Source of the DNA: Nitrospinota bacterium
GTDB lineage: Bacteria > Nitrospinota_A > UBA7883 > JACRLM01
Assembly (NCBI GenBank): GCA_015231995.1
Contig: JADGAO010000001.1
Coordinates: forward strand, 1-52,612
Direction of reading: 5' to 3'
DNA: 52,612 nt
Part shown: positions 21,116-39,486 of the stretch, piece after piece
How the letters are laid out: each line of letters begins with the position of its first letter
Position numbering within the stretch: position 1 is the first letter of the stretch
Made by a program: the position numbers and the translations under genes
The notes under the pieces: generated by a model
Told to the model about the DNA's origin: nothing
What the model saw: the letters and a program-made list of their open reading frames with translations, nothing else
Databases searched by the model: none

Positions 21116-21148
21116 AAGATGTTCTACGTGTTTGACGCAAAGTTAGCA

Positions 21149-21253: not shown

Positions 21254-21336
21254 TTCCAGACTCCTTGAATCGTTAAAATCTAACGGAAGAAAGCTTATTT
21301 CCACGCCCCGATCATGACAGCCGAAGCAAGCGACCT

Positions 21337-21510: not shown

Positions 21511-21512
21511 AG

Positions 21513-22136: not shown

Positions 22137-22281
22137 CAGGTTCCCCGGCTTGGTTGTCCAGCGTCATTTGTGAACGGGCAATAGCCTCGCATTGAACAGG
22201 AGCAACAGAGCACTGCTCCCGTATCTCTCCCGCCCATTTAGCGCCGGAGAGATTATTGGCTGAATAGGATTTTCGGTTCAT
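22123..22281 (-). CDS. Possible 52-aa ORF coupled to the Abi gene
   Basis: The ATG at 22281 overlaps the Abi stop as ATGA (MNRKSYSANNLSGAKWAGEIREQCSVAPVQCEAIARSQMTLDNQAGEPDDGK). It overlaps the start of the membrane-protein gene by 14 nt. The listed ORF extends to 22314. Confidence 0.35.
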   Translation of the reverse strand: MNRKSYSANNLSGAKWAGEIREQCSVAPVQCEAIARSQMTLDNQAGEPDDGK

Positions 22282-23526: not shown

Positions 23527-25535
23527 TCCGTCACCTCCGCCAGCATATCGGCGATTTCCTTTTCAATCCGTTTAAGGTCAGTTTCGATCTCCTTCAACGG
23601 GCGTGGCGGCGTGTACTTGTAGAAATAACGGTTGACGTTGATCTCGTAGCCCACCTTTGTTTTGGACTCATCCACCCAAGCATCTGGGACATGGGGGAGA
23701 ACTTCGCGCTTGATGTATTCACCCACGTTATCTTTTAGCGGTACGTTTTCATAGTCGCGCAGTTCTACGTCTGGTTCAGGGTTGCCGTCCCTGTCGGCGC
23801 AGATATCGGCGGTATCATCGCGTTCGGAAAGCGCCATGAGGATGGCCTTGAAAAGCGGCGCTGGAACTTTCAAATCCGCATTCTTGAGTGCCTCTTTCAT
23901 CGCTTCGGAAAATTTGTCCCGGTTTTTGACAATTTCCAGCGTTGATAGCCCCTCAAGCGCTCTGATAATCGCTTCCTGAAACTCCAGCCCCTCTTCGACC
24001 TCCTTCTCGGCGGCTTTGGTGTCCTTCCGCTTCTTGCTGGTAGCGAGGTTGACGAAGGGCGTGGCCTCCTTCAGCCGTGCTATGCGTTCCTTGTCTACAG
24101 CGAAATTGAGGCGCAGGGGTCGTTCGACTGTTAAGCGGCGATAACCAAAATCGGCGTTATCGAAAATGCGTACATGCTCACCGCTCCTAAAACTCCCATA
24201 AAGCCGTGTAATGTCGTCACGCTGGCCATCGCAGATTTCGTTACGTTTATTGCCGAGGGACTTTCGCATTTTCTTGAAGAAACTCGTCCCGTCTACAAGC
24301 TGAATCTTGCCCCTGCGGTTCCGCTCTTTTCGGTTTGTGACGATCCAAAGGTATGTGTAGATACCAGTGTTGTAGAAAAGCTGGTCAGGTAGGGCAACTA
24401 TGGCCTCCAACCAATCGTTTTCGATAATCCAGCGCCGGATTTCGCTTTCGCCAGAACCGGCGGAGCCTGTGAAAAGCGGAGAGCCGTTGAAAACGATGCC
24501 GAGCCGAGTTCCACCCTCCTTCGGGTCTTTCATCTTGCTTATCATGTGCAGGAGGAAAAGAAGCGATCCGTCGTTGATCCGTGGAAGCCCGGCTCCGAAC
24601 CTGCCGCCGAAACCCTGTTCTTCATGCTCCCTCGCGATAAGATCGGCTTCAGGTTTCCACTCCACCCCAAAGGGAGGATTGGCCAGCATGTAATCAAACT
24701 TGTGATGTGGAAAATGGTCGTCTGTGAAGCTGTTGCCGAAGGCTATATGCTCGATGTCCTGCCCTTTTATCATCATGTCAGACCCGCAGATGGCGTGGGC
24801 CTGGGCGTTATAGTCCTGGCCAAAGACTTCTAGGCGGGCGTCGGGATTAAGCTCGCGCATGTACCCCTCGGCAACTGACAGCATACCCCCCGTTCCGCAC
24901 GCCGGATCGTAGAGGGTCTTGACGATCCCTTTAGTGGTGAGAATATCGCCATCGGGCATGAAGAGAAGGTTCACCATGAGGCGAATGACCTCACGCGGGG
25001 TGAAGTGGTCGCCAGCCTCTTCGTTGGACGCTTCGTTGAATCTCCTGATGAGTTCCTCGAAGATGTAGCCCATTTCGATGTTTGATACCGCGTTTGGGTG
25101 GAGGTCAATTTCACAAAACTTCGATACCACTAGATACAGGCGGTCTGCCTTGTCGAGTTTGGCGATGTGTTCCTCAAAACCGAAGTGTTCGACAATTTCA
25201 CGGGCGCGGGCGGAGAAGCCCTTGATGTAGTTGGTCAGGTTCGCGGCAATATTGTTGGGATCGCCTTTAAGTTTCTCGAAGGTGAAGCGACTGGTGTTGT
25301 AGAACGGCACACCCGTGGCGCGGCATAGAATGGGATCAACGTTCTTGACTTTTCCGCCAGCCAGTTTCTTCTGTTGTTCAAGCGCCTTTTCCTTTGTGGG
25401 TTCCAGAACACAGTCCAGCCGTCTAAGAACTGTCATGGGTAACATGATATCCTTGAACTGGTTCGGGCGATATGGCCCGCGCAGTAGATCAGCAACCGAC
25501 CAGATAAAGCTAACCTTTGCGCCGAAATTATTCAT
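23523..25535 (-). CDS. hsdM: Type I restriction-modification N6-adenine DNA methyltransferase subunit
   Basis: HsdM_N-like N-terminus (FIWSVADLLRGPY). SAM motif I LYDPACGTGGML; motif IV MLANPPFG. The ORF is open to 25607, but the ATG at 25535 (MNNFGAKV...) has AGAGG 5 nt upstream and matches typical HsdM N-termini. Confidence 0.93.
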   Translation of the reverse strand: MNNFGAKVSFIWSVADLLRGPYRPNQFKDIMLPMTVLRRLDCVLEPTKEKALEQQKKLAGGKVKNVDPILCRATGVPFYNTSRFTFEKLKGDPNNIAANLTNYIKGFSARAREIVEHFGFEEHIAKLDKADRLYLVVSKFCEIDLHPNAVSNIEMGYIFEELIRRFNEASNEEAGDHFTPREVIRLMVNLLFMPDGDILTTKGIVKTLYDPACGTGGMLSVAEGYMRELNPDARLEVFGQDYNAQAHAICGSDMMIKGQDIEHIAFGNSFTDDHFPHHKFDYMLANPPFGVEWKPEADLIAREHEEQGFGGRFGAGLPRINDGSLLFLLHMISKMKDPKEGGTRLGIVFNGSPLFTGSAGSGESEIRRWIIENDWLEAIVALPDQLFYNTGIYTYLWIVTNRKERNRRGKIQLVDGTSFFKKMRKSLGNKRNEICDGQRDDITRLYGSFRSGEHVRIFDNADFGYRRLTVERPLRLNFAVDKERIARLKEATPFVNLATSKKRKDTKAAEKEVEEGLEFQEAIIRALEGLSTLEIVKNRDKFSEAMKEALKNADLKVPAPLFKAILMALSERDDTADICADRDGNPEPDVELRDYENVPLKDNVGEYIKREVLPHVPDAWVDESKTKVGYEINVNRYFYKYTPPRPLKEIETDLKRIEKEIADMLAEVTE

Positions 25536-25754
25536 AAAACCTCTACTGTCGCGGATTCGCAGGATCACCAAGTCATTGCGCGAAGATAACCTCCCACACG
25601 CAATCATCTTTTCTCAACAGGAGTCGAACTAACCGTTGGCCAATTTTACGGGTTTTGAAAACCCTTTCCCTCATTGGCTAATGGTTGTATAGCTTACGTC
25701 GAACTCCCCTTAAGATACCCATGCTATTATGGCGCATTTTACGCCATTACCGCG

Positions 25755-25774
25755 AAAAAACTCCCATTGGGAAG
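25755..25774 (-). terminator. Weak intrinsic terminator candidate after the giant gene
   Basis: Minus strand reads CUUCC-CAAU-GGGAG (5-bp stem including one G.U) followed by UUUUUU, about 55 nt downstream of the stop at 25831. The stem is short. Confidence 0.35.
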
Positions 25775-25830
25775 TATAATGAGTGGAATCATGGCGAAAT
25801 GTTTTTCCCTTCAAGCATCCAACCAGTAAC

Positions 25831-28800
25831 TCATTGATATTCCGCCCAATCCTTCCTTGCCGCCCGGTAAAGCGTCTGTGCCTGCCGTTGCAACGATTGT
25901 GGCGTAATCAAGTGTTCCTCCGCCGGTGTTGCCATCGCGTTGTACCGATAGACTCTCTCAAGGAACTTCACCATATCGGATGGCGGCGCTCCACGGCTTG
26001 CGAGTATGCGATACTCGTCATACAATGCGTTCCGGCGGTCGGCGTAGTTTTCGGATTCTCGGCGCCCCTCGTACCGCCTTGCGAGAATCATTGATGTCCG
26101 TGTCGGCTGGAATCCCACGCCTTTCATAACGGCCTCGGCCAAGGTCGGTTTAACGATTCGTCCGCGCTCATCGAATATCGCCTTGTGGCGCTTCGTCGCC
26201 AACCCGTGCGTGTATTCCGAATACGCCTTAAACGGGGCGGAGAACGCCGTGGGTAACAGGGCTTTGGGAGCGCCAAGCATATCGCCTTTGGAGAGCGCGT
26301 CGAACCCTTCATGAAAGTCCTTGATAACGCCTCCGCCCGCTCCTAAAAGCTCCCACACGTTGGAGGGTATCCCCACGCCGATGTTGGGTTGAAGCGATCC
26401 GCTTAACTGCACGGGTGTAAAATACCCGACGGCTCCGTATCTCGCCGCCCGTTCGCCGTTTTCTCCAAGGTACTTGCGTGTCGTGTCCCACCACCACTTT
26501 TCAGGATCATTGTCTATTCCAATGGCGGACAGCATGGCGCCAGCCGCCAAGACGATGCCGCTCTTCATTGGGATGGCCATCCCCCCGCCCAGGACAATCG
26601 GCGCAAGAGATGCGTAAATCATGGCTTTATAGTTTTTCCGCCTGAATCCAAGCTCGTATAGCAACTGCATGTAGTTGTGACCATACTTGCTGAAAATCAA
26701 CATCGGCTGAAAAGCCCGTCCCATCGTCCCCTGCGCCCAGATGGGCAATGTGGCTTTGTTGTAGATTCCATGCGCCCGGTCGGACGCGAGCTTGGCGGCC
26801 TTGACCGCTTCGTCATGACTCATGCCGGACTGAACGGCGACACGATAGGCGGCCAGTATGGTTGAACCACGATTTATCCGTTCAGTGAACCCGAACGGCG
26901 CCATAGCGGTTTCGATGAGTTTCGCCCATGCGTTGGAGATTTGCCCCGTCCGTGTCCGGCTGTTGATGTGGGACAAGGCTTCCGTTGTGGCTTGTGGATT
27001 CGCCCAAGCTTTTTGCTTGAGTTCGTTCAGGAGTTTGCGCTCGTTCTCCTTGAGCTTTACATCCTTGCCTGCCATCCACAGGCCGAAATCCCGTACCGAT
27101 TTCGATAGATGGCGGACGATGGCGCCAGCGCCGACTATCTTGCCTCCGGCGTATTCGTGGATGGCCGCCGGAGCGGTTGTGGGGAGCGACAACAGGTTCA
27201 CCGCCGCCGACTTCACGTTGAATCCAAGATACTTGAACGCCGCCAGCGATTTGATAAACCCCAACTGTCCGTCAATGTGGTCACTATTCCGAAGCTGATT
27301 GGCGACGTAGGACACGGCCAGATCGTAGGTCTCCGCTTCCTTGCGGGAGTCTATTTCATTTATGGCGGAGTACATCTCCCTTGCGGCCTCAGCTTTGGCG
27401 AGGCCGGAGGATAAGGACGATGCGTACTGCAACAACGCAGTCTTGGGGTCGGTTTCATATCCATGAACCACCGGCATGTCCACATTCCTGGCGATGGCGC
27501 GGGAGCGGAACCCGCGAGCCTTGATAAGGTTGGCCATCTCGATTATCAGTGATTCGTAAACCTGTTTTGTGTTCTCGCCAAGTTTTGCCGTCCGGATGGC
27601 TTCTTCAATGGCTTTCTGCGTCATAGGAATCTTCAACTCCTGATAGACCGATTCAGCCATCCGCTCGGCCTCTTGAACCGGCTCTACCTTCCATCCTTTG
27701 GCTTTAAGCTCCGCATGAAGTTTCTCGGCTTCAACGCGATTGCGATGGTAACGATACAGATTGCCGCTTTTGTCCTTCGCCCGGACGACGTATTCACCGA
27801 TCCTCTGACGCGGAGCGTATGAGCCGCGCAGTTCGCCCATTTCATCCAAAGCTTCGCGCAAGGTCAGGCGGTGTTGTTTCCCAGCGTCGTCGGCTACAGT
27901 TATCTCCTGCGCCAGCATCTTTCGGGATAACGGGTCTTTCCCCTGAAACTCAAGCCAAGTGTCCAGCGCACGGTCATAAGCCCGGCGAACCGATCTCCAG
28001 GCGTCTATTACCTCTTTGGAATAGCCCCGCCGTTCCATCTCGCCGATTGTCTTGGCTTCTTTCCACGCTGATTTGTCCGTAACGTCTTTGGGCGGGTTCC
28101 AATCCTTCGTGTCCGCCCATACCAGGACATTTTCAAGCTGTTTGTATTGAGGTTTTTTGAGTCTGTCCAGTTTGCGGTAGATTTCCTCGCCGTCGTTATC
28201 GGTGAGGAACTTGTTCAGATGCTCATGCCGCGTGTCCTGCCTCCGTAGAGCGGTGTCAATGAACCTCTTGAAGACGGGATGGTTCCAGTATTCCGGGGAG
28301 AGTAGCGTTTTCTGCAAAAACCCAACCGCTCCCACCGGCTGGATGTTCACCTCCGCGTATCCAGCCTTCCGCAAGGCGCTGGCGGCTTTTTCCGCCGATT
28401 CCATTGATTGATGCGTGTCGCGTCGTTCCGCGCCGGTCGCCGGATCATATCCAGACACCTGATACTTCTTTATAGGGAACAGCGAGTTGTATATGGCGTG
28501 GCTATATGCCAGCGTTGTTTTAACGAAATCCTCCTGCGTAGGCTTTTCGGTCATCGGCTCCGATGCGTATTTGTCAGCCGTATCGTCCAAGCCGGTGAGT
28601 GATAAATTCAGCGCGGCGGAATCAGAAGTAGCGGTCTCCTTGTTACCAACCGGCGGTTGTGGCGGCGCATTCTGATTTTCCCATGACTGTTTTAGCGCTC
28701 GTATTGCCTCCAGCATGTCCGTATGGGAGATATTCATTTTCACGCCCAGGGCTTTGGCTATGCGCCGTAAGACCTGCCGCAGTTTGGCGATAATCCATCG

Positions 28801-31800
28801 GGTGAAGCTATGGTCTATATGCTTTTCCCCCATCCTGGCTATAAGCTCGCGGGCGATGGTATTCCGCCCTTTTTCCGTGCGCCAGTCGGCTTCCTTGTAG
28901 AGTTGTTTGATTTCGGCGATTTCCTTGCGGACAACTGGATTGTTAGACCAATGGCCGAACACGTTGTCCACGATCCGTTTCCAGTCGCCGCCGAACATGT
29001 CAATGAGCCTGTCCGTGGCGCCGTGGGTCGCTTCGTGGAACAAAACCTCAAGAACCGCCCGGTTCAAGGGCTGGCCTTTGGCTGTGGATTTCCGTATCAG
29101 CCCGTCCGCGACAAGATAAATCCGGTTCGCCTTCGGATCGAACAGTCCCGATACGCTAACCATCATCGGTTTGCCGTTGACGCTTTTATTTGCGGCCTGC
29201 TGTATGCGGTTCCGCAGATTGGGCGGTAAATCATTGATGCTGTCAATCACCGTAACCGGAGCTGGCAGGTTCGGGAACGCTTTGTTCAGCCGTTCGGCCA
29301 TCTTTCGGATTTCGCGGAACCGGCTGTCCTGATAGATGGATTTATCAAGGCTGTCAAAGCTCATCTCCGGCGGTTTGTCCTCGTCGGATTCCTCCTCGGC
29401 GATCATTGGCTCGTCGTTGCGTCCGATCTCAAGCTCTTTGTCCAGTTCCGCCTGCCGCGCCAGAGTCTCATTAAGCTTCGCCTCATGTTCAAACGGTTTC
29501 CCATATTCCCCGGTGACGGTCTTTAAATCCCGTTCGAGTTTTCCGATTTCCCGTTCTGCCCTGGCGTGTTCCGATTCGAGGTTCTTGACAAGGTTTTCAA
29601 GCCGAACCGTAACGTTGACGTTTTCGCTGTTGAACGGAACCGTGAAGTAATAATCCCGTTTCCCCCGAAGGTAGATTTCAGGGTCACGAAGCTCCGTCCC
29701 ATACCCTTTACCCGCGATGGCCAGCTTGAATCCGGCGTAATTTCCTATAACGTCTTTCTTTCCCTGGGTGTTCAATCCGCCGTACTTGGAGATGATCGCC
29801 CTTAATGCGTCGTTGGCGTCCTTGCGTTCGATGTAATCACTGCCTTGAATGGCCATCGCAAAATTGTCGCCGGAGACATCCTTTCTTGCTTTGATGTCCT
29901 CAGCCACATCGTCACGGTATTTGCCCCACCACTCGATGCTTTCGGGGATGCGCTTGGATTTGCTTTGCAGGCTCCTCTGCTCATCCTGCCACGCCCGTTT
30001 CAGGGTGGAGAGCCGCCGGGCTTCTGCGTCCACCTTGGCTTTTTCCATGACTTTTGGGTTGCCGGAAGCGATGGCTTTCACCTCTGCGTATGACAACGCC
30101 GCGCCCGCCACGTCGTCTATGTTCCGCAGGTAGTTATCTCCCCTCATCACCTGGCTGATGAACCGGGCTTTCGATTCCAATGTCTGCCACATGTAAGCGT
30201 CGAAACTGCCTTCCGTGACATACCGGTATATCTGAACCTCCGGATTCTCGTTACCCTGCCGGACTATCCTGCCTTCCCTCTGCTCGATGTCCGCCGGTCG
30301 CCACGGCGCGTCAAGATGATGGAGGGCGACAAGACGTTTCTGAACGTTGGTTCCAGCGCCCATCTTGGATGTGCTACCAAGCAGGATACGGACTCTCCCC
30401 TCCCGCACGTCATTGAACAGTTCCGCCTTTTGCTGATCCCTCTCGTAATCGTGGATGAACGCGATCTCCTCTTTCGGGATTCCACGCTGGATAAGTTTCT
30501 CCCGGATGTCGTCATACACGGAAAAAGCCCCGCTGTCCGCCAGAACCTCGTCCATGTTGACTTCTTTCTTTGAATCACCGTTCTCGCCGGAGTCGGTGGA
30601 ATCTTCAGCCTCTTTTCCCTTCTTTCTTTTTTTTGTTTTCTTCGGTTTCTTGGATTTCTTCTTCGGGGTGGAAAGGTCGCAAAACACCAACTGCGCCGCG
30701 CCGGAGGTCTTGCTTTCGGCGTAGGAGCTGTCTTTGGTCTCTTCCCAGACACGATAGATATTGTCCGCCGCCCGGTTGACCTTGCTGTTTGGCTCGTCCG
30801 GCAAGGATGGATCAATCAACCGCATGTCCAACGCCGCCTTCCGCCCGTCGTTGGTCACTTTGAGCATGTTGTCTTCACGGGGGTCAACCTGTCCGCTTCG
30901 TATCCGCTCGGAACGACGCACAAGGGTTTCAACGTACTGCTTCAGTATCCCGGAGGAAGAGGCGCTCACCGTTTGAGGTTTGCCGTTCTTTACCGTCGGA
31001 ACGGGAAGGTTGAGCATCTCCGCCGTCTGGATGTCCGACACCTGCCGGAACATGCCCATAAGCTCCGGCAGGTTCACAAACTTGCTGAATCGCGTGTTGA
31101 GCCGGTATCCGCTCCCGTCCGGGGCAAGCTCCATGCTAGTCACGGCCTCACCGAAACTGGCCGCCCAGGAATCGAAATGCAACAACCCCTGACGTTTGAG
31201 CGTGTCCAGTTGCAGATACCTCTGCATGGTGAACATCTCCGCCATCGTGTTGCTCACTGGCGTTCCCGTGGCGAACACCACGCCCCCACGCCCTTTCTGG
31301 AGCCGGTTGACGTGGATGGTTTTAAGGAACATGTCGTCGGATTTGACCGACTGGCTGTTGTTAAGCCCGGCCACACGGCTCATCTTGGTGGGGAATTGCA
31401 GGTTCTTGAACTCGTGCGCCTCATCCACGAAAAGCCAGTCAACGCCCGTCTCCTCGAACGTGACCGCTTTATCCTGATCCTTCTGGATATCGCTCAACCG
31501 TTTAGCGTATTTATCTTCAAGCTTCTTTCTGACGGCCTCGATCTGTTTTACGATCTTGCTGTCCCTGCCGGACTCCCGTTTCTCCTCCTCGATAAGGCGC
31601 GTGATCTCTTCAATCTGTTCCTTGTAATATTTCGATTGGGTTTCGGCGGACATCGGCAGGCGGCGAAACGACGCATGGGTGACAACCACCGCGTCCCAAT
31701 CGTTAGTGGCTATTCTGGACATGAGAAGCCGTCGGTTCTTCTTCTCAAAATCCTTTTTGTCCGCCACAAGTATGTTCGCCGTGGGGTATAGCTCCAATAT

Positions 31801-34800
31801 CTCCCGCGAAAACTGCTCCAACATGTGGTTTGGAACCACATACATAGGTTTCCTGGCGATTCCAAGGCGGCGCAGTTCCATACCCGCTCCGGCCATCGTG
31901 TAGGTTTTGCCCGCGCCCACCACATGAAAAAGACCGGTATTGCCGGTCTGCACGATGCGCCATACACCCGCCCGCTGATGCGGCTTGAGTTTCGCCACTA
32001 TCTGCGGATTCGCGCCGGGCAGGGTTAAATGGTCGCCGGAGAACGCCCGCAGGCGTGTATTGTTGAACTCCTCGTTGTATTTGCGGGCGAGCCTATCCGT
32101 CCGTTCCTCTTCCCGCCAAATCCAGTTTTTAAACTCGTCCTTTATCTTCTGTTGTTTCTCCCGCGCCGCCTCCGTCTCTTTCTGATTGACGATCTTTTTC
32201 TTGTTGTCATCCGGGGCGACATCCATGATGGTCGGGGTTTTCAGATTCAGCGCGTCCAGAACAGCCTGCAATGCCTCGTATCTTGGCGTGCCCCATTTCT
32301 GGGTGTTGGTCTCGATACGCCGCACATCGCTTTCCACCGACCAGAACCCAAGATTGGCCGCATGATTCACCCGGATGTTATGCGGGGCGATCTCCAGAAG
32401 GCTCGCCACAAAATCCCGCACATCATCGGTGGGTATCCAGGACGAACCCAGCCTTATGTCTATCTCGCCCGGTTTTAAATCCACCGGTTGCACCGCTTTT
32501 AACGCCTCGACGTTCTCATGAAACGACGGGTTGTCCTGGGCTTTCTTTGTGGCGATTTCCAGCTTGTGGCGAACGTTGCCGGAGAGATAATCGTCTTCCG
32601 TAACCCATTCCCCGGATTCAGGGTCTCTGTATATCGCTCCTTTGAGTTCGGCGATAATCTCTTTCTCCGGTTTACCGTATATCCGGCTCATGTGGTCAAG
32701 AGCGACTTTGCCGTTCTCGTTCAACGACACGGCCAAAGCCCCCTGCGCCGTATCAACCTTCGCCACAGGCTCATGCCGGTTCACGACACGTTTGCTGAAG
32801 ATATCCGCCTTGTACGCCGTGTTCTTTTTCTTGTTGTAGTTCCGCTCTATGGAGCTTAATAGCGGGTAGTCAGGGTCTTTCCCGAAAGCTGTGCGGTTAG
32901 CCTGCACATTGATGTAACCGAACTGGTCAATGAACTGGTCATAAATCCTGTTTAGCTTTTTCCGGACGGATTCGATCTCCGGCTCGCTGGCGGCGTCGAG
33001 TTGGGTTCGCAGAACATCCTTCACAACGTCCCGAAGGCCGATCATACCCTTGATCCGTTCGGCCACTTTGCCGGAATAGCTGGTTTCCACAAGCGTTCCG
33101 TTGTCATTTATCATGATCGCGCCATCCCGGAGCACGTGCGCCCCGTTCTTGATTCGTTCGTCAGGGGTTTCCGGTTGGCGATTGTCAATTTCGGGAACCG
33201 TTGATTCCGGACGCTCGTAAACACCTTCTGGCAGACGGTTGACCGCCTCCTCCAGCGCCTCGCCAATGTCCCTTCCGCCGGAAACAAGAGTGGCCTCGTT
33301 TTTCCGGTACATCTTCCCTTCGTAGGCCATCTGCCCCAGCATCATCTCCGGGCGGGACGCAAAATATTCGTTCACCATGAACGTGTCGCCGTCCTTACCG
33401 GTGATTTCCGCGAGGTCGCGCCATTTTGGTTCGGACTTTGGTTTCTCACCCTCGGCGTATTTGCGGAGGATGACTATATCCGTCGTAACTTCCGTGTTGG
33501 CGTTCTTCTTGAAAGCGTCGTTTGGAAGACGGATCGCGCCGATAAGCTCCGCCCGTTTCGCCATGTAATCGCGGACGTATGAGTCCTTCTTGTCCAATGT
33601 CCCTTTGGATGTAACGAACATGACAAGACCGCCCGGCCTTACAATGTCCAGGCTCTTGGCGAAGAAGTAATCGTGGATGCGAAGTTTCAGTTTGTCGTAT
33701 CGCGGATCATGAAGTTTGTAATCACCGAACGGGACGTTCGATATGGCCAGATCAAAATAGTTATCCGGAAACTTGACTTTCTCGAAACCCTGTATCCGTA
33801 TGTCAGCCTCCGGATAGAGTTTATTTGCAATGCGTCCTGTGAGGTCGTCTATCTCAACGCCGGTGATTCGAGAGTTGGATTTCATGGTAGGCGGCATGTG
33901 GCCTATGAAATGCCCCGCGCCCAACGCCGGTTCTATAACCCGTCCGCCAGTGAACCCCAACCGTTCGAGGGCGGAATACATCGCCTTGATAACCTTGGGG
34001 GATGTGTAATGAGCGTTCAGGGTGGAGCCTCTCGCCGCCTCGTATTCTTCTTTAGTGAAAAGGTCTTTGAGATCGCGGTATTCGTTCGCCCAATTCTTGT
34101 TGTTTGAATCGAACGCTTGCGGTATTCCGCCCCATCCGGCGTATTTGACTAGGAGAGATTGCTCTTCGGGCGTAGCGTTGCGATTTTCGGATTCGAGTGT
34201 TTTAAGGAGCCGGATCGCGGATATATTATTGCCGAACTTCTGGTTCTGCGACCCTTCGCCGATCCGGTCGGATTCGGTGATGCGATAGCTTAATACTCGC
34301 CCTCGGTCGTCTCCTCTTCCGGCTCTTCCCCTGTTTTCAGGCTCCGCAACATGGACTGCTGGCGTTTCATGAACAACGTCTGATCCTCCAGCCTGGCTTT
34401 CAGGCTGTCTATTTCGTCTATCAGGTCTCCGATCCTGGAATTGTCCGTCTCGTCTTCCAGTTCTTTCTCCAGACTCGCTATTTCGGACTTGATCTCTTTT
34501 ATCACCATCCGTGAATTCCGAATCTCGTCCACGATCTCTTCCATGTCTTCTTCCGCCGGTAGAAGGATGTGGTTCTCCATTGTCATCTCCCAAGCCCTGT
34601 CCGCCAGATAAGACAGATGCGCTTCGGTCTCCTCCGCCGTGGCGTTGGCTGGGATCGGGTCTTCCTTCAACAGGCTTTTCACTATCGCGTCCATCTCCTG
34701 TTTCGTGGCTTCCTGCGCCTGATACGCCCGTTCCAGAAGTTTCCCCTGTCTCTTGAGCCGTTTGAACATTTGCGGCCTGTTCTCGCGCCAGTGGGTTATC

Positions 34801-36990
34801 GCCAACTGGCCCATCTGATCGAGCTTGATTTGGGTTTGCGCCGTTTTGTTTGTCATGTTCCGATGCCTCCCTCGTAATAATATCGGCCTTTGTTCCGGAA
34901 TAATCAATGGGAACTACTGCGTATTTTCCATTTTCTTTTGGATGCTCAATCACCTTGCTGGGCGCGCCTGATTTCATTTTCCGGTTGGCCTGCATGATCG
35001 CAAGACCTTTGGGCAACGGTTGTGCTTCTGGAGTGACCGAAGAGCCGGGATTCACGTTTTGTGTAGCCTGATTGCCCGTAGAATCGGAAACATTCGGGGA
35101 TTCAATCTTCGCTTTCACCGTGTCAAGACGGCGATTAGGAAACACCATCCCACTCCGTTTATCGTTCCATATACCGCCCAACCCAAGAGATTTGATGGAA
35201 TCCTTGTCGCCTTTAAGGACAAACTCCTTATCTGAAATCTCCTCTATCCCGTAACCGCTGGCCGGTTGATTCGGGCTGGCGGAAACCGAAGATTCCGATG
35301 CGGCGCCGGTGGATGGTTTTCCCGGTCGCACGTATTCGATCTTTATTCCCGATTGGCGGATAGCTTCCTGCGTCTCCGCTCTTTTCTTGTATAACTTTTC
35401 AAGTTCAGGATCGGTTTGCGTTGTTGACGATTTAATGGTGGAAGGTGATTCCGTCGCGTCAACGTATCGTGTAGTGGGACTCGTTTTGTTTTCAGGGATA
35501 GCGCCGGGTATAACGCCAGTCGTGTCGTCTTTCTTGAGGATCGCGCCGGTTCCCAGTTGGCCGTAATTGTCTTTATGTTCGACTTGCGTTCCTGGCTTTA
35601 GAGAGTCCTCCGTAGGTTGAACGTCGGTGATAGCCGTGTCCTGTATCGTATTGCGTGTTTTGTTTTCGGCTTTGAGCGCCGTGGGTTCTTCAGGGGTATT
35701 GGCTTGAGGTTCTGGTTTCGAGGTTACAGGCTGTGTTTCTTGTGCGAAGCTATCCTCATTGACCGGTTCAGGCGTTGCCGCCTGATCGCTGGTTCCGGCG
35801 GATGAGGTTGGTTCTTCTAAAATGGATTTCGCGCCAGATATGGAGATACCGCCTGGTTTCCCGCTCTCGTCAGCCTGCTTTAGCTTTTCCTTTGAAACTG
35901 CGGGTTCTGGCTCGGCCTCCTGCGAAACCGCATCCTTCGCCTTGGCCAATCCCGATGGCGTGACATAAACCCGAAACTGGCCTTCTTTCCCTTTATGAAG
36001 CGGATTGATCTTCAGGTCTTCGTTGCGAAATCCCTCCGTGATGATCTTTTCCTTGATGAACTCCTGCGCGGCTCGCAGTGAATGAAACGCCCGGTCGTCA
36101 AAGCTCTTGAGGGAGTTCCTGGTGTATCGCCCAGCGCCTTGCGGAGATTCCCCTGATTCCGGCTGTTCCGGCGGCGCCTCGTTAGCTTTATCCCGCTCTT
36201 CCCCGGAAACAGCGCTAGTTTCCGTTTTTGGCTCCGGCAAGAGTTTTACGTTCCGTTCTGAACGTTGCGGCAATGCGCCCACCGCCAACGGCTCGCCACG
36301 AGTCATCCGCCACGCATACCTTATTGCGTCCTCTTCGTTGTATCCTCTTGAAAAAAGCTCGTTGAATATGCGTTCCGCCGTAGTATCCAGTGTCACGCCG
36401 TCATCCGCCGGATTAACCGCGCCCGCCGCCGATTCTTCGGCTACTTTTCTGGCAAGGCCAATCTTGGTCAATGCGGTGACACCGGATCGGTAGGGAACCA
36501 TTGCGTTGGATACCGCGCTTACAGCCGACTTCTCCGGCAGATAACCGGCTATTGGCGTGTTTTGCGGGGAGGGAATGTTCTCGGCGTTATTTCCAGTTTC
36601 CGTCCGCCTTGCTTTACCGTGCAATACTGCGCCGGTTCCGCCGCCCAAAAGACCTCCAGCCAACCCGCCAGTCACAGACTGGTTCAACACGTCTTCATCC
36701 CATTGTTTCGTGGGATCAACATACTTCTGTTCGGCGAGATTCTGGATGGCCTGTTCCGATCCGCTCTGTAAAAACTCCTGCGCCGATTCCGCTGTTAAAC
36801 CCTCCACGGCGGACGAACCTCTCCGCCCGATCTTCTGAGCCAGTTTCCCAACCGCCTCCTGCCCGGTCTTTCCCATGATCCGGCCATATACCGCGCCGGG
36901 AACCGCCCCCCAACAACGCAGTGGACGGAGCCGTTCTTGCGAACACCTCGTTTTCCGCACGTCTCGCCGTCTCTTCCCGCGCCTGCTCAT
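25831..36990 (-). CDS. Giant polyvalent virion-type protein (DarB-like): N6-adenine methyltransferase, SNF2-family helicase, HExxH metallopeptidase-like motif and C-terminal TM-rich region; the true 5' end is probably 37582 via a frameshift
   Basis: 3719-codon ORF. MTase motifs VIEPALGAGHF and ISNVPFGD. Helicase motifs LKPHQRAGV...VVGAGKT, LFVDEAHEFKN and QREGRIVRQGN. HEATH at 29023-29037. Hydrophobic segments lie near 26500-26640. The first 28 codons or so of the listed ORF (MSRRGKRRRDVRKTRCSQ...) look non-coding; sensible sequence begins just after the G6 run at 36906-36911. Confidence 0.9.
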   Translation of the reverse strand: MSRRGKRRRDVRKTRCSQERLRPLRCWGAVPGAVYGRIMGKTGQEAVGKLAQKIGRRGSSAVEGLTAESAQEFLQSGSEQAIQNLAEQKYVDPTKQWDEDVLNQSVTGGLAGGLLGGGTGAVLHGKARRTETGNNAENIPSPQNTPIAGYLPEKSAVSAVSNAMVPYRSGVTALTKIGLARKVAEESAAGAVNPADDGVTLDTTAERIFNELFSRGYNEEDAIRYAWRMTRGEPLAVGALPQRSERNVKLLPEPKTETSAVSGEERDKANEAPPEQPESGESPQGAGRYTRNSLKSFDDRAFHSLRAAQEFIKEKIITEGFRNEDLKINPLHKGKEGQFRVYVTPSGLAKAKDAVSQEAEPEPAVSKEKLKQADESGKPGGISISGAKSILEEPTSSAGTSDQAATPEPVNEDSFAQETQPVTSKPEPQANTPEEPTALKAENKTRNTIQDTAITDVQPTEDSLKPGTQVEHKDNYGQLGTGAILKKDDTTGVIPGAIPENKTSPTTRYVDATESPSTIKSSTTQTDPELEKLYKKRAETQEAIRQSGIKIEYVRPGKPSTGAASESSVSASPNQPASGYGIEEISDKEFVLKGDKDSIKSLGLGGIWNDKRSGMVFPNRRLDTVKAKIESPNVSDSTGNQATQNVNPGSSVTPEAQPLPKGLAIMQANRKMKSGAPSKVIEHPKENGKYAVVPIDYSGTKADIITREASEHDKQNGANPNQARSDGPVGDNPLAREQAANVQTAQETGETSGTGVSGAGSHETGDGRDSEKPVEGRPDPSQRHGGGDRSASVLSGGQGLGDDNGEPHPSTGGRRHGRDRGRDSEFTDGDKRDQVRNSESGERTGRRDGQFQDRRPDRRNRQPESQAGGSDVVHETPAVHVAEPENRGRAGRGDDRGRVLSYRITESDRIGEGSQNQKFGNNISAIRLLKTLESENRNATPEEQSLLVKYAGWGGIPQAFDSNNKNWANEYRDLKDLFTKEEYEAARGSTLNAHYTSPKVIKAMYSALERLGFTGGRVIEPALGAGHFIGHMPPTMKSNSRITGVEIDDLTGRIANKLYPEADIRIQGFEKVKFPDNYFDLAISNVPFGDYKLHDPRYDKLKLRIHDYFFAKSLDIVRPGGLVMFVTSKGTLDKKDSYVRDYMAKRAELIGAIRLPNDAFKKNANTEVTTDIVILRKYAEGEKPKSEPKWRDLAEITGKDGDTFMVNEYFASRPEMMLGQMAYEGKMYRKNEATLVSGGRDIGEALEEAVNRLPEGVYERPESTVPEIDNRQPETPDERIKNGAHVLRDGAIMINDNGTLVETSYSGKVAERIKGMIGLRDVVKDVLRTQLDAASEPEIESVRKKLNRIYDQFIDQFGYINVQANRTAFGKDPDYPLLSSIERNYNKKKNTAYKADIFSKRVVNRHEPVAKVDTAQGALAVSLNENGKVALDHMSRIYGKPEKEIIAELKGAIYRDPESGEWVTEDDYLSGNVRHKLEIATKKAQDNPSFHENVEALKAVQPVDLKPGEIDIRLGSSWIPTDDVRDFVASLLEIAPHNIRVNHAANLGFWSVESDVRRIETNTQKWGTPRYEALQAVLDALNLKTPTIMDVAPDDNKKKIVNQKETEAAREKQQKIKDEFKNWIWREEERTDRLARKYNEEFNNTRLRAFSGDHLTLPGANPQIVAKLKPHQRAGVWRIVQTGNTGLFHVVGAGKTYTMAGAGMELRRLGIARKPMYVVPNHMLEQFSREILELYPTANILVADKKDFEKKNRRLLMSRIATNDWDAVVVTHASFRRLPMSAETQSKYYKEQIEEITRLIEEEKRESGRDSKIVKQIEAVRKKLEDKYAKRLSDIQKDQDKAVTFEETGVDWLFVDEAHEFKNLQFPTKMSRVAGLNNSQSVKSDDMFLKTIHVNRLQKGRGGVVFATGTPVSNTMAEMFTMQRYLQLDTLKRQGLLHFDSWAASFGEAVTSMELAPDGSGYRLNTRFSKFVNLPELMGMFRQVSDIQTAEMLNLPVPTVKNGKPQTVSASSSGILKQYVETLVRRSERIRSGQVDPREDNMLKVTNDGRKAALDMRLIDPSLPDEPNSKVNRAADNIYRVWEETKDSSYAESKTSGAAQLVFCDLSTPKKKSKKPKKTKKRKKGKEAEDSTDSGENGDSKKEVNMDEVLADSGAFSVYDDIREKLIQRGIPKEEIAFIHDYERDQQKAELFNDVREGRVRILLGSTSKMGAGTNVQKRLVALHHLDAPWRPADIEQREGRIVRQGNENPEVQIYRYVTEGSFDAYMWQTLESKARFISQVMRGDNYLRNIDDVAGAALSYAEVKAIASGNPKVMEKAKVDAEARRLSTLKRAWQDEQRSLQSKSKRIPESIEWWGKYRDDVAEDIKARKDVSGDNFAMAIQGSDYIERKDANDALRAIISKYGGLNTQGKKDVIGNYAGFKLAIAGKGYGTELRDPEIYLRGKRDYYFTVPFNSENVNVTVRLENLVKNLESEHARAEREIGKLERDLKTVTGEYGKPFEHEAKLNETLARQAELDKELEIGRNDEPMIAEEESDEDKPPEMSFDSLDKSIYQDSRFREIRKMAERLNKAFPNLPAPVTVIDSINDLPPNLRNRIQQAANKSVNGKPMMVSVSGLFDPKANRIYLVADGLIRKSTAKGQPLNRAVLEVLFHEATHGATDRLIDMFGGDWKRIVDNVFGHWSNNPVVRKEIAEIKQLYKEADWRTEKGRNTIARELIARMGEKHIDHSFTRWIIAKLRQVLRRIAKALGVKMNISHTDMLEAIRALKQSWENQNAPPQPPVGNKETATSDSAALNLSLTGLDDTADKYASEPMTEKPTQEDFVKTTLAYSHAIYNSLFPIKKYQVSGYDPATGAERRDTHQSMESAEKAASALRKAGYAEVNIQPVGAVGFLQKTLLSPEYWNHPVFKRFIDTALRRQDTRHEHLNKFLTDNDGEEIYRKLDRLKKPQYKQLENVLVWADTKDWNPPKDVTDKSAWKEAKTIGEMERRGYSKEVIDAWRSVRRAYDRALDTWLEFQGKDPLSRKMLAQEITVADDAGKQHRLTLREALDEMGELRGSYAPRQRIGEYVVRAKDKSGNLYRYHRNRVEAEKLHAELKAKGWKVEPVQEAERMAESVYQELKIPMTQKAIEEAIRTAKLGENTKQVYESLIIEMANLIKARGFRSRAIARNVDMPVVHGYETDPKTALLQYASSLSSGLAKAEAAREMYSAINEIDSRKEAETYDLAVSYVANQLRNSDHIDGQLGFIKSLAAFKYLGFNVKSAAVNLLSLPTTAPAAIHEYAGGKIVGAGAIVRHLSKSVRDFGLWMAGKDVKLKENERKLLNELKQKAWANPQATTEALSHINSRTRTGQISNAWAKLIETAMAPFGFTERINRGSTILAAYRVAVQSGMSHDEAVKAAKLASDRAHGIYNKATLPIWAQGTMGRAFQPMLIFSKYGHNYMQLLYELGFRRKNYKAMIYASLAPIVLGGGMAIPMKSGIVLAAGAMLSAIGIDNDPEKWWWDTTRKYLGENGERAARYGAVGYFTPVQLSGSLQPNIGVGIPSNVWELLGAGGGVIKDFHEGFDALSKGDMLGAPKALLPTAFSAPFKAYSEYTHGLATKRHKAIFDERGRIVKPTLAEAVMKGVGFQPTRTSMILARRYEGRRESENYADRRNALYDEYRILASRGAPPSDMVKFLERVYRYNAMATPAEEHLITPQSLQRQAQTLYRAARKDWAEYQ
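29023..29037 (-). other. HExxH motif (HEATH) in the giant protein, metallopeptidase-like
   Basis: Context AVLEVLFHEATHGATDRLIDMFGG. This is compatible with the metallopeptidase modules described in phage/conjugative polyvalent proteins. The assignment rests on the motif only. Confidence 0.45.
30245..31989 (-). other. SNF2/strawberry-notch-like helicase domain of the giant protein
   Basis: Motif I is near 31900-31989, DEAH near 31404-31440 and motif VI at 30245-30300. A Lys-rich insert TPKKKSKKPKKTKKRKKGKE lies at about 30612-30668. Confidence 0.85.
33435..34289 (-). other. N6-adenine DNA methyltransferase domain of the giant protein
   Basis: Starts at SYRITESDRIGEGSQNQKFGNNISAIRLLKTLE...ATPEEQSLLVKYAGWGG. 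Motif I VIEPALGAGHF. Motif IV LAISNVPFGD is encoded at 33721-33750. Confidence 0.85.
34290..34856 (-). CDS. Nested 188-codon ORF in an alternative frame of the giant gene (TnpV-like N-terminal half plus acidic coiled coil)
   Basis: The listed ORF is 34290..34907. The ATG at 34856 is preceded by GGGAGG 9 nt upstream. The product MTNKTAQTQIKLDQMGQLAITHWRENRPQMFKRLKRQGKLLERAYQAQEATKQEMD...RAWEMTMENHILLPAEEDMEE... has natural composition. It resembles a widespread small-protein family (..HWRE.RP.M...L...G.L......A.......AWEM..E..ILLP.EED). The ORF ends exactly where the MTase domain starts. Confidence 0.55.
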   Translation of the reverse strand: MTNKTAQTQIKLDQMGQLAITHWRENRPQMFKRLKRQGKLLERAYQAQEATKQEMDAIVKSLLKEDPIPANATAEETEAHLSYLADRAWEMTMENHILLPAEEDMEEIVDEIRNSRMVIKEIKSEIASLEKELEDETDNSRIGDLIDEIDSLKARLEDQTLFMKRQQSMLRSLKTGEEPEEETTEGEY

Positions 36991-37582
36991 GGGTAAGCCC
37001 GCTTGTCCGCAATTCCTGATAGACAGGGCTTTTTGATAGGTCGGCTGGGGTCATCTTGCGGATGTTCATCCCAGTGTCAGAAGCGTTTTGCGCTCCGGCC
37101 TGTATGCCCTCCATAGCTCCGAACCCAACCGCCCCGGCCAACGCGGGCGCGATTTTCATCGCCGCTCCCACTTTGGTTACAGCCGCCCCAGGAATAGCAG
37201 TGGCCAGCATGGACGGGAGGGATTCAGCGGCGGATAACGCTATGGTGGATAATTTTGGATCGAACCTTATATTGCCCTGTTCGTCGTAATCCACAATCTT
37301 GTGCCGTAACGCTCGCTGGCCTTCATTGGACATTGCGCTCCGCCAGTATTCGGAGGTCTGGTCGCCAACGCGCTCGGCTCCGCCGCCTATGTTCTCCGCG
37401 CCGACCTTTCGGGCGAGCCAGCCTATCGGCTGAACCACGCCGGAACCTACGCCGGACGCGACAGCCTTGAAATAATCTGTAACGGCGGGAGACTTTTCAT
37501 CCAGGTCGTCCAGTGTGGCGGTACGCAACCCATTCGCCGGTTCATAACCCGCATCCTGATAAGTGGCGAGCCGCAGAGCCAT
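36716..37582 (-). CDS. N-terminal segment of the giant polyvalent protein, separated from it by a 1-nt frame change
   Basis: 288-codon ORF. The ATG at 37582 follows the upstream stop directly (TAGATG), with GGGAGG upstream. The sequence is sensible up to ...FARTAPSTALLGG, encoded at the G6 run, and R/G-rich nonsense after it. The giant ORF becomes sensible (AVPGAVYGRIMGKTGQEAVGKLAQ) at exactly the same point. Confidence 0.8.
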   Translation of the reverse strand: MALRLATYQDAGYEPANGLRTATLDDLDEKSPAVTDYFKAVASGVGSGVVQPIGWLARKVGAENIGGGAERVGDQTSEYWRSAMSNEGQRALRHKIVDYDEQGNIRFDPKLSTIALSAAESLPSMLATAIPGAAVTKVGAAMKIAPALAGAVGFGAMEGIQAGAQNASDTGMNIRKMTPADLSKSPVYQELRTSGLTHEQAREETARRAENEVFARTAPSTALLGGGSRRGIWPDHGKDRAGGGWETGSEDRAERFVRRGGFNSGIGAGVFTERIGTGHPESRRTEVC

Positions 37583-38845
37583 CTATTTCGCGCCTCCCAT
37601 AATCCGTTTAGCGTCGTCACGGGTTATCTCTGTCCCGTTATGGAAGAATTTCCCCGTCTTGTCGTCAATCATCACCTGCGGCGTTCTCGGCTCCGCCTCC
37701 TGCCCCGTCCAGGTGTCTATCCATTTCTGGCCGGTCTTCATGCCCATGTCATTGAACACATCCTGTTTCTGATACCGGCTCCGTAACGCCGCCTGCTCCT
37801 TGGCGTTCCCCTCGATAACGGCTTTGGCAAGTTCCGTCTCGTTGCGGGCGTTGAGCTTTGCGATCTCTGTCTGATTCGCCCTGTTCGATCCGGCGGTTAT
37901 CATCGGCGTGTATTCGTTCAATAACCCGGCGAGCAAATCTTGAGGGTTACGCGACGACCGGATTTTCTCGGCGAGAGCTGTTGAAGTTTCCTGCTTCTGA
38001 CCATTCCCAGGAACGACGTAGGTTTTGCCTTTGTCCGCGCCTTCCTCAACGGTGATATACCCGCTGACATTGGCGCCAGGCTGTTGTTGGGTTGATTGCG
38101 TATCCCCTCTGTTTCCGGAATATCCAACATGTTCCCAATCGCCACTATCGCTTTTTTTCAGGATCATGCCGGTTTTGGGATGAACGATCTCCGCGCCCGG
38201 TTTGTATAAGGCCAATGTTTCTTTGAACAAAGAGCCTTGTTGCGCGTCGCGCTTTTTCGCCAAACCTGTTTCGGTTTTATCTTGCGATTCCTGCTTCGCG
38301 TCGTTTCTTTTCGCTATTGCATCCGCTTTCTTTTGAGCCTCATACCTGGCGCGGTCGTTGATGATTTTGGCTTCCACCGTCGGAGACATCTCCGCGTCGT
38401 GCCCCAACATTCTCGCCATACCGATACCGGCTCCTCTGGCTATATCCTCCCCGCCTCCAGCGTACCTGCCGCTACCTGAGTAGTTGAACGGATTCAAATC
38501 GCCGGTAACGGTATCGGCAAAGGATTTTGCCCCTTCAGCCAGGTTTCCAGAGCCAATGGCCGTATCAACACCCTTAATAGCGCCGTGCGCCACGGCAAGG
38601 CCGCCCGCCACGGAAGGCGCACTACGGCCAGCTATCTCCGCTCCTTTCCCGGCGAATCTTGAAGTAATCTCCGGAACTTTCTCCGCCAGATAACTCCCCA
38701 GCCGTCCAGGTTCGTATTTAGGAGCGAAACGTTTCACCGTTTCCCACGCGGTGTTTCCGGCAGTTTCAACCGGATGAACGTATGGAACGACGGAGCGCAC
38801 AGGAGCCTTTACGACGTTACCGAACTCATCCACTACGAACGGCAT
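37583..38845 (-). CDS. Hypothetical Gly-rich phage protein (possible internal/ejection protein)
   Basis: The listed ORF runs to 38854 (GTG). The ATG at 38845 has GGAGG 10 nt upstream and lies 2 nt after the previous stop. No motif recognised. It lies between the tail fibres and the giant protein. Confidence 0.7.
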   Translation of the reverse strand: MPFVVDEFGNVVKAPVRSVVPYVHPVETAGNTAWETVKRFAPKYEPGRLGSYLAEKVPEITSRFAGKGAEIAGRSAPSVAGGLAVAHGAIKGVDTAIGSGNLAEGAKSFADTVTGDLNPFNYSGSGRYAGGGEDIARGAGIGMARMLGHDAEMSPTVEAKIINDRARYEAQKKADAIAKRNDAKQESQDKTETGLAKKRDAQQGSLFKETLALYKPGAEIVHPKTGMILKKSDSGDWEHVGYSGNRGDTQSTQQQPGANVSGYITVEEGADKGKTYVVPGNGQKQETSTALAEKIRSSRNPQDLLAGLLNEYTPMITAGSNRANQTEIAKLNARNETELAKAVIEGNAKEQAALRSRYQKQDVFNDMGMKTGQKWIDTWTGQEAEPRTPQVMIDDKTGKFFHNGTEITRDDAKRIMGGAK

Positions 38846-38847
38846 GA

Positions 38848-39486
38848 TTACCACCCCTCCATGTTGAGGATTTCGTCATCGGTGTACCGGCGGGGCGCGA
38901 GTTTTTGATTCTTTTCCTCGTTCGGATCGGATATCCCGCCCTGATGGGACATTCCGGCCACGCCACTGAAAATCCGTTCCGCCGTCTGGTAATCCATCGG
39001 CATCGGGAAATCGCTTTTGTTGCGCCAGTCCTGCATATAGCTCTTGTCCGAATAGTTGAGGTTCTGATCCATCTCTCCCTGCCGTTTGGCGAGGCCATAC
39101 TGGTTCTCAATCCGTAGCCTGTCCTCAAACGATGGGGCGAGCTGGCCGTATTTTTTCTGGAGTTCGTACTGGTTTTCGAGCCTCTGCCGGTCAATGTCGG
39201 CCTGCGTCTCGCCCATCCGCCTGGCTTTCATCGCCGAAACCGTTCCCCAGGGATCGGGATCAAGAGCCGAAGCCCCGGCCATTGAGCCGCCTCCATCGCC
39301 GTATCTGCCCGCCAGAACAGGACGGGTGGGACTCCCGGCTGTCCCTTTCATGAATCCCGAACCGCCCCCGTTCCGGAAAAGCAGGTTGCCTATTCGCGTA
39401 AACCCGCCTGCGCCAGCCGAGATACTCTCAACCGGGGTTCTTTTGTTCATCCGCGCCGACAGCATGTTGCTAAACGTGTTCCACAT
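38848..39486 (-). CDS. Hypothetical phage protein
   Basis: The listed ORF runs to 39513. The ATG at 39486 (MWNTFSNML) has AAGGAG 8 nt upstream. No motif recognised. Confidence 0.65.
   Translation of the reverse strand: MWNTFSNMLSARMNKRTPVESISAGAGGFTRIGNLLFRNGGGSGFMKGTAGSPTRPVLAGRYGDGGGSMAGASALDPDPWGTVSAMKARRMGETQADIDRQRLENQYELQKKYGQLAPSFEDRLRIENQYGLAKRQGEMDQNLNYSDKSYMQDWRNKSDFPMPMDYQTAERIFSGVAGMSHQGGISDPNEEKNQKLAPRRYTDDEILNMEGW

Follow-up and report, generated by a model that had tools for sequence, protein, structure and literature searches.

DarB (2,255 amino acids, aa), located in the head of phage P1, shields incoming DNA in cis from type I restriction of the EcoK/EcoB kind and presumably enters the cell (PMC9024508, PMC5512222). 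Its packaging needs Hdf, DarA, DdrA, DdrB and Ulx, together with a 30-residue N-terminal targeting signal (PMC9144972, PMC9024508). The 3,500-aa gp50 of phage N4, a virion RNA polymerase (vRNAP), is packaged whole and ejected into the host (PMC5512222). For gp69 of JC1 (4,515 aa), a homologue encoded in the same genomic position as the gene presented here, 51 unique peptides were recovered from CsCl-purified virions, where the protein is abundant (PMC9144972). Many phages are already annotated as encoding giant DarB-like proteins (3,700-4,600 aa) in this position, and the class was analysed in 2017 (PMC5512222). The podophages of about 55-65 kb used for comparison are Klebsiella LASTA and SopranoGao (Lastavirus), Ralstonia Gamede and Cimandef (Cimandefvirus), Erwinia PEp14 and Pavtok, Serratia Parlo, and Burkholderia Bcep22 and JC1. 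Their giant genes bear names such as 'DarB-like antirestriction' (Gamede, 4,639 aa) or 'PLxRFG domain-containing protein' (LASTA, 4,433 aa). Here, we describe a gene of the same kind in a contig assigned to a Nitrospinota bacterium (JADGAO010000001.1 of GenBank assembly GCA_015231995.1), which was analyzed over its whole length of 52,612 nucleotides (nt) and is referred to below as the window. The gene lies at positions 25831-37582 on the minus strand, and its product of 3,916 aa appears as a divergent example of the recognised virion-borne DarB-like class.

We consider it probable that a temperate podovirus-like prophage uses this product as its giant internal virion (ejection) protein, in which a polyvalent delivery scaffold carries a DarB-type anti-restriction cargo. 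This reading builds on features established in the present analysis, namely the domain content, the intact catalytic motifs, the homology of each module, the position of the gene and the relatives encoded by a single open reading frame (ORF). The scaffold-plus-cargo organisation is supported because the C-terminal module recurs behind different cargo. As in the podophages, where such a gene measures 11-14 kb, the single giant gene closes the structural module and takes up about one fifth of the genome. In the window, the gene starts with the ATG at 37580-37582, directly after the TAG of the upstream gene and about 10 nt downstream of a GGGAGG sequence, and it stops at 25831-25833. An initial annotation, made from the sequence alone, had proposed one gene of about 11.75 kb and about 3.9k aa with a single frame change, an extent that the list of ORFs, their translations and the repair to 3,916 aa bear out. 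All parts that it listed were found as well (a Gly/Ala-rich N-terminus, linkers, a methyltransferase (MTase), an SNF2 helicase with a Lys-rich insert, the HExxH sequence HEATH and a C-terminal module). Its designation as a polyvalent protein equally stands, with an N6-adenine MTase, an SNF2 ATPase and a zincin-like HExxH module in one polypeptide at the end of a structural operon. The residue numbers used below are those of the repaired product.

The MTase-helicase core of the protein (residues 1100-2740; 29362-34284, minus strand) consists of an N6-adenine MTase, an inter-domain region, an SNF2-type ATPase and a helical extension. The MTase (about residues 1100-1420) contains motif I 'EPALGAGHF' at 1217-1225 and motif IV 'NVPF' at 1282-1285; the ATPase (about residues 1851-2500) contains GAGKT at 1889, DEAH at 2053, TGTP at 2105 and QREGRIVRQG at 2434. 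Degeneracy of these MTase and helicase motifs, named beforehand as a reason to give up the polyvalent designation, is not seen; they are intact. The core matches PHROG 10089 'DarB-like antirestriction' with 1,976 bits (E = 0). A comparison with P1 DarB, as suggested by the initial annotation, returned three colinear segments (MTase, ATPase lobe 1 and lobe 2) with 25-40% identity and E values of 3e-20, 1e-19 and 6e-17. Both proteins share the N6-adenine MTase-SNF2 dyad with its NVPFG and QRxGRxxRxG variants, along with EPxxGxGxF and GxGKT (P1 DarB reads 'EPSAGTGVF' and 'NVPF'). Over about 1,800 aa, the core is 40% identical to LASTA and 36% to Gamede. About 70 IMG/VR loci conserve it, and their ORFs often measure 2,000-5,600 aa. 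Sequence similarity thus places it in the DarB-type MTase-SNF2 family. More general models agree less strongly: Pfam gives weak matches to Helicase_C (above the cutoff), ResIII (just below it) and Eco57I, models of DrmD and SNF2 also match, and there is a weak match to the TaqI MTase among the sequences of the Protein Data Bank (PDB). The Lys-rich insert (residues 2305-2345; 30547-30669, minus strand) immediately follows the first strand of ATPase lobe 2. In alignments this site is variable, with a different insert in LASTA and none in Gamede, and an insert at that position has been described for polyvalent SNF2 ATPases (PMC5512222). P1 DarB differs from the giant protein in that it lacks the vRNAP-like N-terminal, HExxH and PLxRFG modules (two module profiles give E >= 1 or nothing), and P1 is a myovirus, unlike the podovirus-like prophage considered here. 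None of the packaging partners of P1-type DarB (Hdf, DarA, DdrA, DdrB, Ulx) was found here.

At the other end of the reading frame lies the C-terminal module of about 840 aa (residues 3079-3916; 25834-28347, minus strand), which is mostly helical. NCBIfam NF032893 ('PLxRFG domain', 'tail-700') scores 169.1 bits on it (cutoff 100) and aligns with ORF residues 3057-3713 from position 2 to position 668 of its 681; phrog_11358 matches too. In a HMMER search against 1.84 billion representative proteins, the conserved unit begins about 175 residues before the start of the NCBIfam model and always forms the C-terminus of its carriers, which measure 887-5,868 aa, with pairwise E values down to 1e-157. 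LASTA and related proteins likewise end in a PLxRFG module. The alignment with LASTA puts the motif itself at 'YAPRQRIGEYVV' (residues 3254-3266; 27784-27822, minus strand), where it is degenerate: the protein reads 'PRQRIG' for PLxRFG, keeping P, R and G while L has become R and F has become I. In the closest clade, this position reads 'YAPRIRxxG'. The initial annotation had outlined a region of about 900 aa with transmembrane-like helices. The helices have a counterpart in a hydrophobic helical hairpin located by hydropathy (residues 3654-3687; 26521-26622, minus strand), and the extent has to be reduced to about 840 aa. The AlphaFold2 (AF2) model of the module, with a predicted local distance difference test (pLDDT) of 69 and a predicted template modelling score (pTM) of 0.64, consists largely of helices, and a small beta subdomain surrounds the motif. 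In BFVD, the model matches end portions of numerous giant phage proteins (E to 5e-21), and names among the strong matches include 'large polyvalent protein-associated domain', 'DNA methylase' and 'ART-PolyVal-like'. Relatives that share the C-terminal or the HExxH module carry other cargo, namely a 2H/Acb1-like phosphoesterase of the anti-CBASS type, an ART-PolyVal ADP-ribosyltransferase or a RadC-like JAB domain (P0002, P0023, P0027, P0029 and P0049, all outside the window).

Between the core and the C-terminal module, residues 2753-2993 (about 240 aa; 28603-29325, minus strand) are predicted to form a zincin-like metallopeptidase, with HExxH and a downstream Glu as third ligand. The HExxH sequence reads HEATH (residues 2849-2853, window 29023-29037). 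The HMMER search matched 13 proteins to this stretch, and an alignment of 12 sequences shows H2849, E2850, H2853, E2912 and E2919 to be invariant; most relatives have HExxxH. The same variant has been noted for metallopeptidases (MPTases) of polyvalent proteins by Iyer, Burroughs, Anand, de Souza and Aravind (2017, PMC5512222), whose theme of an MTase-SNF2 dyad plus an MPTase returns in the giant protein. In the AF2 model of the module (pLDDT 79), the elements follow each other as a helix, three strands, the HExxH helix and the Glu helix, a predicted order that fits a zincin core. A profile of the module finds the equivalent regions of a 2,166-aa protein of the uncultured podovirus MW202615 (65 kb, Manatee Spring; E 6e-6), of Gamede (9e-6), of LASTA (3e-3) and of several IMG/VR giants; on N4 gp50 it falls in the right place, where HELVH is reported at residue 2228 (Iyer 2017, PMC5512222), without reaching significance (independent E value 1.5). 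Homologues of the module show weak matches to Pfam Peptidase_M76 and DUF6782, and in relatives ART-PolyVal is its neighbour. Sequences of the PDB, searched with a profile, gave nothing meaningful. An HExxH module lies downstream of the core in the podophage giants as well, and the order of core, HExxH module and C-terminal module in LASTA is identical to that of the giant protein. In the latter, the HExxH module is connected to the C-terminal module by an unassigned linker with a small predicted alpha/beta island (residues 2994-3078; 28348-28602, minus strand), for which the search of 1.84 billion proteins gave no matches.

The third recurring module is the Gly/Ala-rich N-terminus (residues 1-335; 36577-37582, minus strand), with GxxxG-type amphipathic and hydrophobic segments, one of which is a weak hydrophobic segment by hydropathy (residues 138-156). 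It matches phrog_2206 'virion RNA polymerase' (E 4.5e-12) and phrog_10089, and BLASTP aligns repaired residues 126-321 with residues 265-440 of N4 gp50 (32% identity, E 3e-12). By this homology, the module is common to N4-type vRNAP and other giant virion proteins. The overall plan of N4 gp50 is the same as well, with a homologous N-terminal module, a large enzymatic cargo, an HExxH module and a C-terminal region. Its cargo differs, being a T7-like RNA polymerase and not an MTase-helicase, and the C-terminal regions of the two proteins have no detectable similarity. Both the N- and the C-terminal scaffold modules are apparently not among the domains named in PMC5512222, as far as checked.

Combining these modules with the virion association of the homologues and the function of DarB, both known from the literature, we infer packaging, ejection, cis protection and self-cleavage for the giant protein. 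Its gene would be expressed last in the structural operon, and the protein would be packaged in the capsid via the N-terminal Gly/Ala-rich and the helical PLxRFG C-terminal modules, which may later aid its passage through, or insertion into, the cell envelope. Ejection would take place together with the DNA or ahead of it. Once in the cytoplasm, the SNF2 ATPase would track along the entering DNA and the fused N6-adenine MTase would modify or shield this DNA in cis, by which type I (EcoK-like) restriction would be blunted, as for P1 DarB. The zincin-like HExxH module probably cuts the polypeptide and so releases or activates parts of it, in the capsid or after entry; self-processing by the HExxH module of polyvalent proteins is a prediction in the literature too (PMC5512222).

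Several observations weigh against this interpretation. The transglycosylase and acyltransferase domains of Parlo and Bcep22-type relatives are undetected here in a Pfam scan. The HExxH module has no Pfam match and does not reach the MPTase-PolyVal model at E <= 0.1; this applies to the whole giant protein, in which no Pfam PolyVal or LPD model (MPTase-PolyVal, LPD36 and others) matches at that threshold, and relatives sharing the HExxH or C-terminal module do carry ART-PolyVal. Foldseek searches of the PDB with the HExxH module yielded non-significant hits only (E 0.6-2), PPEP-3, anthrax lethal factor and YbeY among them, and the model of the C-terminal module has no significant match among the solved structures of the PDB, T7 gp16 included. 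A link to T7 gp16 is drawn from the names that depositors gave to BFVD entries and from a weak motif of 43 residues, which reached an hmmsearch E value of 0.003 in a two-sequence test and an hhalign probability of <1%. The remaining points concern the reading frame. A one-base correction at a run of six G residues (G6) is needed, which may reflect a sequencing error or an inactivated copy, and the large ORF has in-frame ATGs with nothing resembling a Shine-Dalgarno sequence ahead of them. Because of this combination, the sequenced allele might yield a product of 288 aa only.

A mainly structural reading was also considered, in which the protein would be an ejection or tail-associated protein equivalent to T7 gp16, a tape-measure or a needle component, and the MTase-helicase would benefit the phage other than by anti-restriction, for instance by marking DNA for replication or packaging, or by pulling DNA in. 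Like the T7 gp16 class of 'internal virion protein D' (ejectosome), the giant protein is large, mostly helical and encoded late in the structural operon. Weaker BFVD matches of its C-terminal module are podovirus proteins of about 1,400-1,500 aa; 'internal virion protein D' is the name of two of them, from the Roseobacter phages CRP-4 (E 4e-8) and CRP-5 (E 1.5e-6). Moreover, N4 vRNAP, which has a function other than anti-restriction, contains a homologous N-terminal module, and an SNF2 translocase could in principle assist DNA entry. Against this stands the core, which belongs to the DarB family with its demonstrated function of cis protection against type I restriction. The solved structures of T7 gp16 remained unmatched, the sequence signal is marginal, and a direct comparison of T7 gp16 and gp15 with the C-terminal module gave nothing beyond the marginal 43-residue match. 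A lytic transglycosylase (SLT or lysozyme families), a trait of the gp16 class, is absent from the Pfam, NCBIfam and PHROG scans. Kinship with this class is therefore a lead and not a membership. We regard the mainly structural reading as quite unlikely; it is, besides, compatible with that of a virion-borne anti-restriction protein, which already gives the end modules a structural or ejection role. The 43-residue stretch itself, 'LG(D)DxDPEKxxWDxxRxxLGxxxExAxRYG' at residues ~3603-3645 (window ~26650-26780) near the hairpin, aligns with T7 gp16 511-556; it occupies a conserved place in the module and is too weak for use.

In the deposited sequence, the gene is made up of two ORFs on the minus strand, a large one of 3,719 aa (25831-36990) and an upstream one of 288 aa (36716-37582), which overlap in different frames. 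A chance origin of the large frame is excluded because the probability of 3,719 codons without a stop is (61/64)^3719 ~ e^-178, at ~54% GC. The homology-supported sequence leaves the upstream frame at '...NEVFARTAPSTALL' and resumes in the downstream frame from 'GAVPGAVYGRIMGK...', which places the switch to within about 10 codons, at 'GTTGTTGGGGGGCGG'. This stretch contains the G6 run (36906-36911; C6 on the plus strand), the +1 shift site and the sole break in the giant gene. Beyond the switch point, each frame of the overlap reads as Arg-rich nonsense. Deleting one G from G6 gives the continuous frame of 3,916 aa, in which the peptide spanning the junction is 'TALLGAVPGAVYGR'. The 2,166-aa protein of MW202615 aligns with repaired residues 37-331 (26-29% identity, E 6e-20) and gp42 of Ralstonia phage Gamede with residues 141-310; these two and N4 gp50 show similarity on both sides of residue 225, each in a single uninterrupted frame. 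Since the alignments of the relatives are continuous across the junction, the 288-aa and 3,719-aa ORFs are, on this comparison, one gene. No closer relatives occur in IMG/VR (identity <=53%) or, in a scan with the N-terminus, among the contigs of GTDB genomes. A word-indexed protein search, whose index misses distant relatives or is swamped by low complexity, recovered only the window's own ORF with the repaired N-terminus and no matches for the HExxH region or for residues 385-560.

Whether the extra G is a real mutation bears on the fate of the product. If it is, the gene would be a pseudogene or a split gene, giving the 288-aa fragment alone or together with a poorly initiated large fragment, and anti-restriction would be lost or altered. 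G6 is indeed present in a second contig, JADFWQ010000130.1 of a metagenome-assembled genome (MAG; GCA_015234085.1), which corresponds over 5.8 kb to window positions 33422-39273 and is 100% identical; the database lists these two contigs for the giant protein, the window's own included. The neighbouring genes are intact, which argues against an error-prone assembly, no other broken genes were seen near the giant gene, and the in-frame ATGs of the large ORF lack an obvious ribosome-binding site, as mentioned above. The MAG contig, however, probably stems from the same sample as the window and for this reason gives no independent confirmation of G6. Homopolymer indels are, in turn, a common sequencing artefact, and the other 3,690 codons are fully open with intact catalytic motifs, which would be unexpected unless the inactivation was very recent. 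Overall, we hold inactivation of the gene to be unlikely. A further break that was considered, at 45208-45265, turned out to be an ordinary ATGA start/stop overlap (45208/45212) and was rejected. The public gene calls on JADFWQ010000130.1 miss the giant ORF and list small spurious genes instead, one of them with a weak 'TnpV' match. A single frame change in a homopolymer can thus be enough for annotation pipelines to split or miss such genes.

A functional role of the frame change, either as a programmed +1 slip on G-GGG-G or as phase variation of the G tract that toggles between a short and a full-length product, appears very unlikely to us. A tRNA-Gly on GGG could re-pair perfectly onto GGG after a +1 slip, and the peptide that follows the slip, 'LLGAVPG', is the homology-supported one. 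Poly-G tracts are also classic sites of phase variation in bacteria. On the other hand, six bases are short for slipped-strand phase variation, the codon after the slip site, GGC, is neither slow nor a stop, a stimulator was not evident, and the relatives encode this region as one ORF without a frameshift.

The part of the protein without counterparts is the middle region of 764 aa between the N-terminal module and the core (residues 336-1099; 34285-36576, minus strand), which is mostly of low complexity (G, S, E, A, P, T). It contains three or four short hydrophobic islands near residues 352-373, 408-426, 502-535 and 787-816, and its last ~150 residues (about 950-1095) form an Arg/Gly/Asp-rich tract. 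According to the alignments, LASTA, Gamede and 15-22 IMG/VR loci have such a tract ahead of the MTase too, so that the succession of an Arg/Gly-rich tract and the MTase-SNF2 core is shared with the podophage giants. Homologues of the middle region were found in none of 70 IMG/VR loci, 52 large proteins, P1 DarB and N4 gp50, and neither this region nor the small islands showed internal repeats with z > 3. The unique middle region, the degenerate PRQRIG motif, the frame change, the lack of the transglycosylase and acyltransferase domains and a strong divergence distinguish the giant protein from those of the podophages; at the DNA level, megablast against 50,697 phage records found no similarity for the whole gene.

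The G+C content at third codon positions (GC3) of the middle region (34285-36576) is 0.49, compared with 0.64-0.68 in the rest of the gene (0.68 in the core). This could stem from a biased amino-acid content, from relaxed selection or from a different origin. It is also the one feature that might suggest an assembly chimera of unrelated genes, given a GC3 of 0.66-0.68 in the flanking modules. A low GC3 nevertheless fits a low-complexity linker with an unusual amino-acid content, and the second contig is identical over the stretch from the upstream gene to the MTase, N-terminal module and middle region included. In addition, LASTA keeps the order of Arg/Gly-rich tract, MTase, SNF2, HExxH and PLxRFG module, part of which is also kept in Gamede and many IMG/VR loci. 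The initial annotation had itself named an assembly chimera as something that would speak against the gene; nothing points to one, and the idea was rejected as extremely improbable on the colinearity with relatives and the identical second contig.

One expectation of the initial annotation is not supported, namely that new anti-defence domains may be drawn from a reservoir of about 1,700 residues outside the MTase/helicase core. Of the ~2,275 non-core residues, about 1,400 lie in the conserved, recurring N-terminal (335 aa), HExxH (~240 aa) and C-terminal PLxRFG (~840 aa) modules, whose character suggests a scaffold for packaging and delivery more than a set of effectors. Low-complexity sequence rich in G/S/E/A/P/T makes up most of the other ~850 aa. 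Taken a step further, these three modules may represent a general ejection scaffold, related to the podoviral gp16-type core proteins and to the N4 vRNAP framework, that carries interchangeable anti-defence cargo: DarB here, and an Acb1-like 2H phosphoesterase, an ADP-ribosyltransferase or JAB in relatives. We put this forward tentatively, as a possibility that is more doubtful than not. If it holds, the 764-aa middle region could still hide short new anti-defence elements, and the scaffold might be usable for delivering chosen proteins into bacteria. The distinction between a variable cargo and three recurring non-cargo modules, of which the C-terminal one stays constant across different anti-defence enzymes, is useful for interpreting further giant phage ORFs and points to candidate parts for packaging and ejection.

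The surroundings of the giant gene describe a temperate podovirus-like prophage with an integrase, a cI-like repressor and replication genes. A tRNA-Pro(GGG) at 3085-3161 adjoins a tyrosine integrase gene (3263-4390, minus strand), and the two likely mark the left attachment site of the prophage, the right end of which lies beyond the contig. Replication and recombination genes, a cro-like gene and the cI-like repressor come after the integrase. Genes for head closure, structural and baseplate-like proteins occupy the minus strand between 52,238 and 37,583, and the giant gene is the last of this same-strand run. A terminator-like hairpin with a T run (25760-25775, minus strand), located 55 nt past the stop codon by a consensus scan only, likely marks the end of the late (structural) operon. 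Terminase, portal and capsid genes were not found within the window. The closest phage found for the structural module is MW202615: two structural genes (39520-41334 and 49929-51563) match its positions 10558-12417 and 2724-3995, in the same order relative to the giant gene. Its 2,166-aa protein, annotated as 'DNA repair protein', combines the N-terminal module with the HExxH module and has no DarB core.

Between the cI-like repressor and the giant gene lies a defence island (12348-25607, minus strand) comprising a type I restriction-modification system with interleaved defence genes. Read from the side of the giant gene, all on the minus strand, it consists of hsdM (23523-25607; PADLOC MTase_I, 983 bits), AbiD (22278-23192), a weak PycTM-like gene (21513-22136), hsdS (19139-21115), IetA (18013-19005), IetS (15434-18016) and an hsdR-like gene (12348-15356). 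One element thus encodes both type I restriction and a predicted virion-delivered counter-restriction protein, which makes it a compact case of the two. Further towards the integrase, an SF2 helicase (8144-9751, minus strand), which weakly resembles models of type IV restriction and of PbeA, and a Cas4-domain exonuclease (7077-8150, minus strand) are probably ordinary phage recombination/replication genes. Outside the prophage, the plus-strand gene at 433-2559 (708 aa) is probably a host gene. It has no PHROG or PADLOC match, and only its first ~165 residues have relatives, at <=46% identity, in Myxococcota, Planctomycetota, Chloroflexota and some Gammaproteobacteria.

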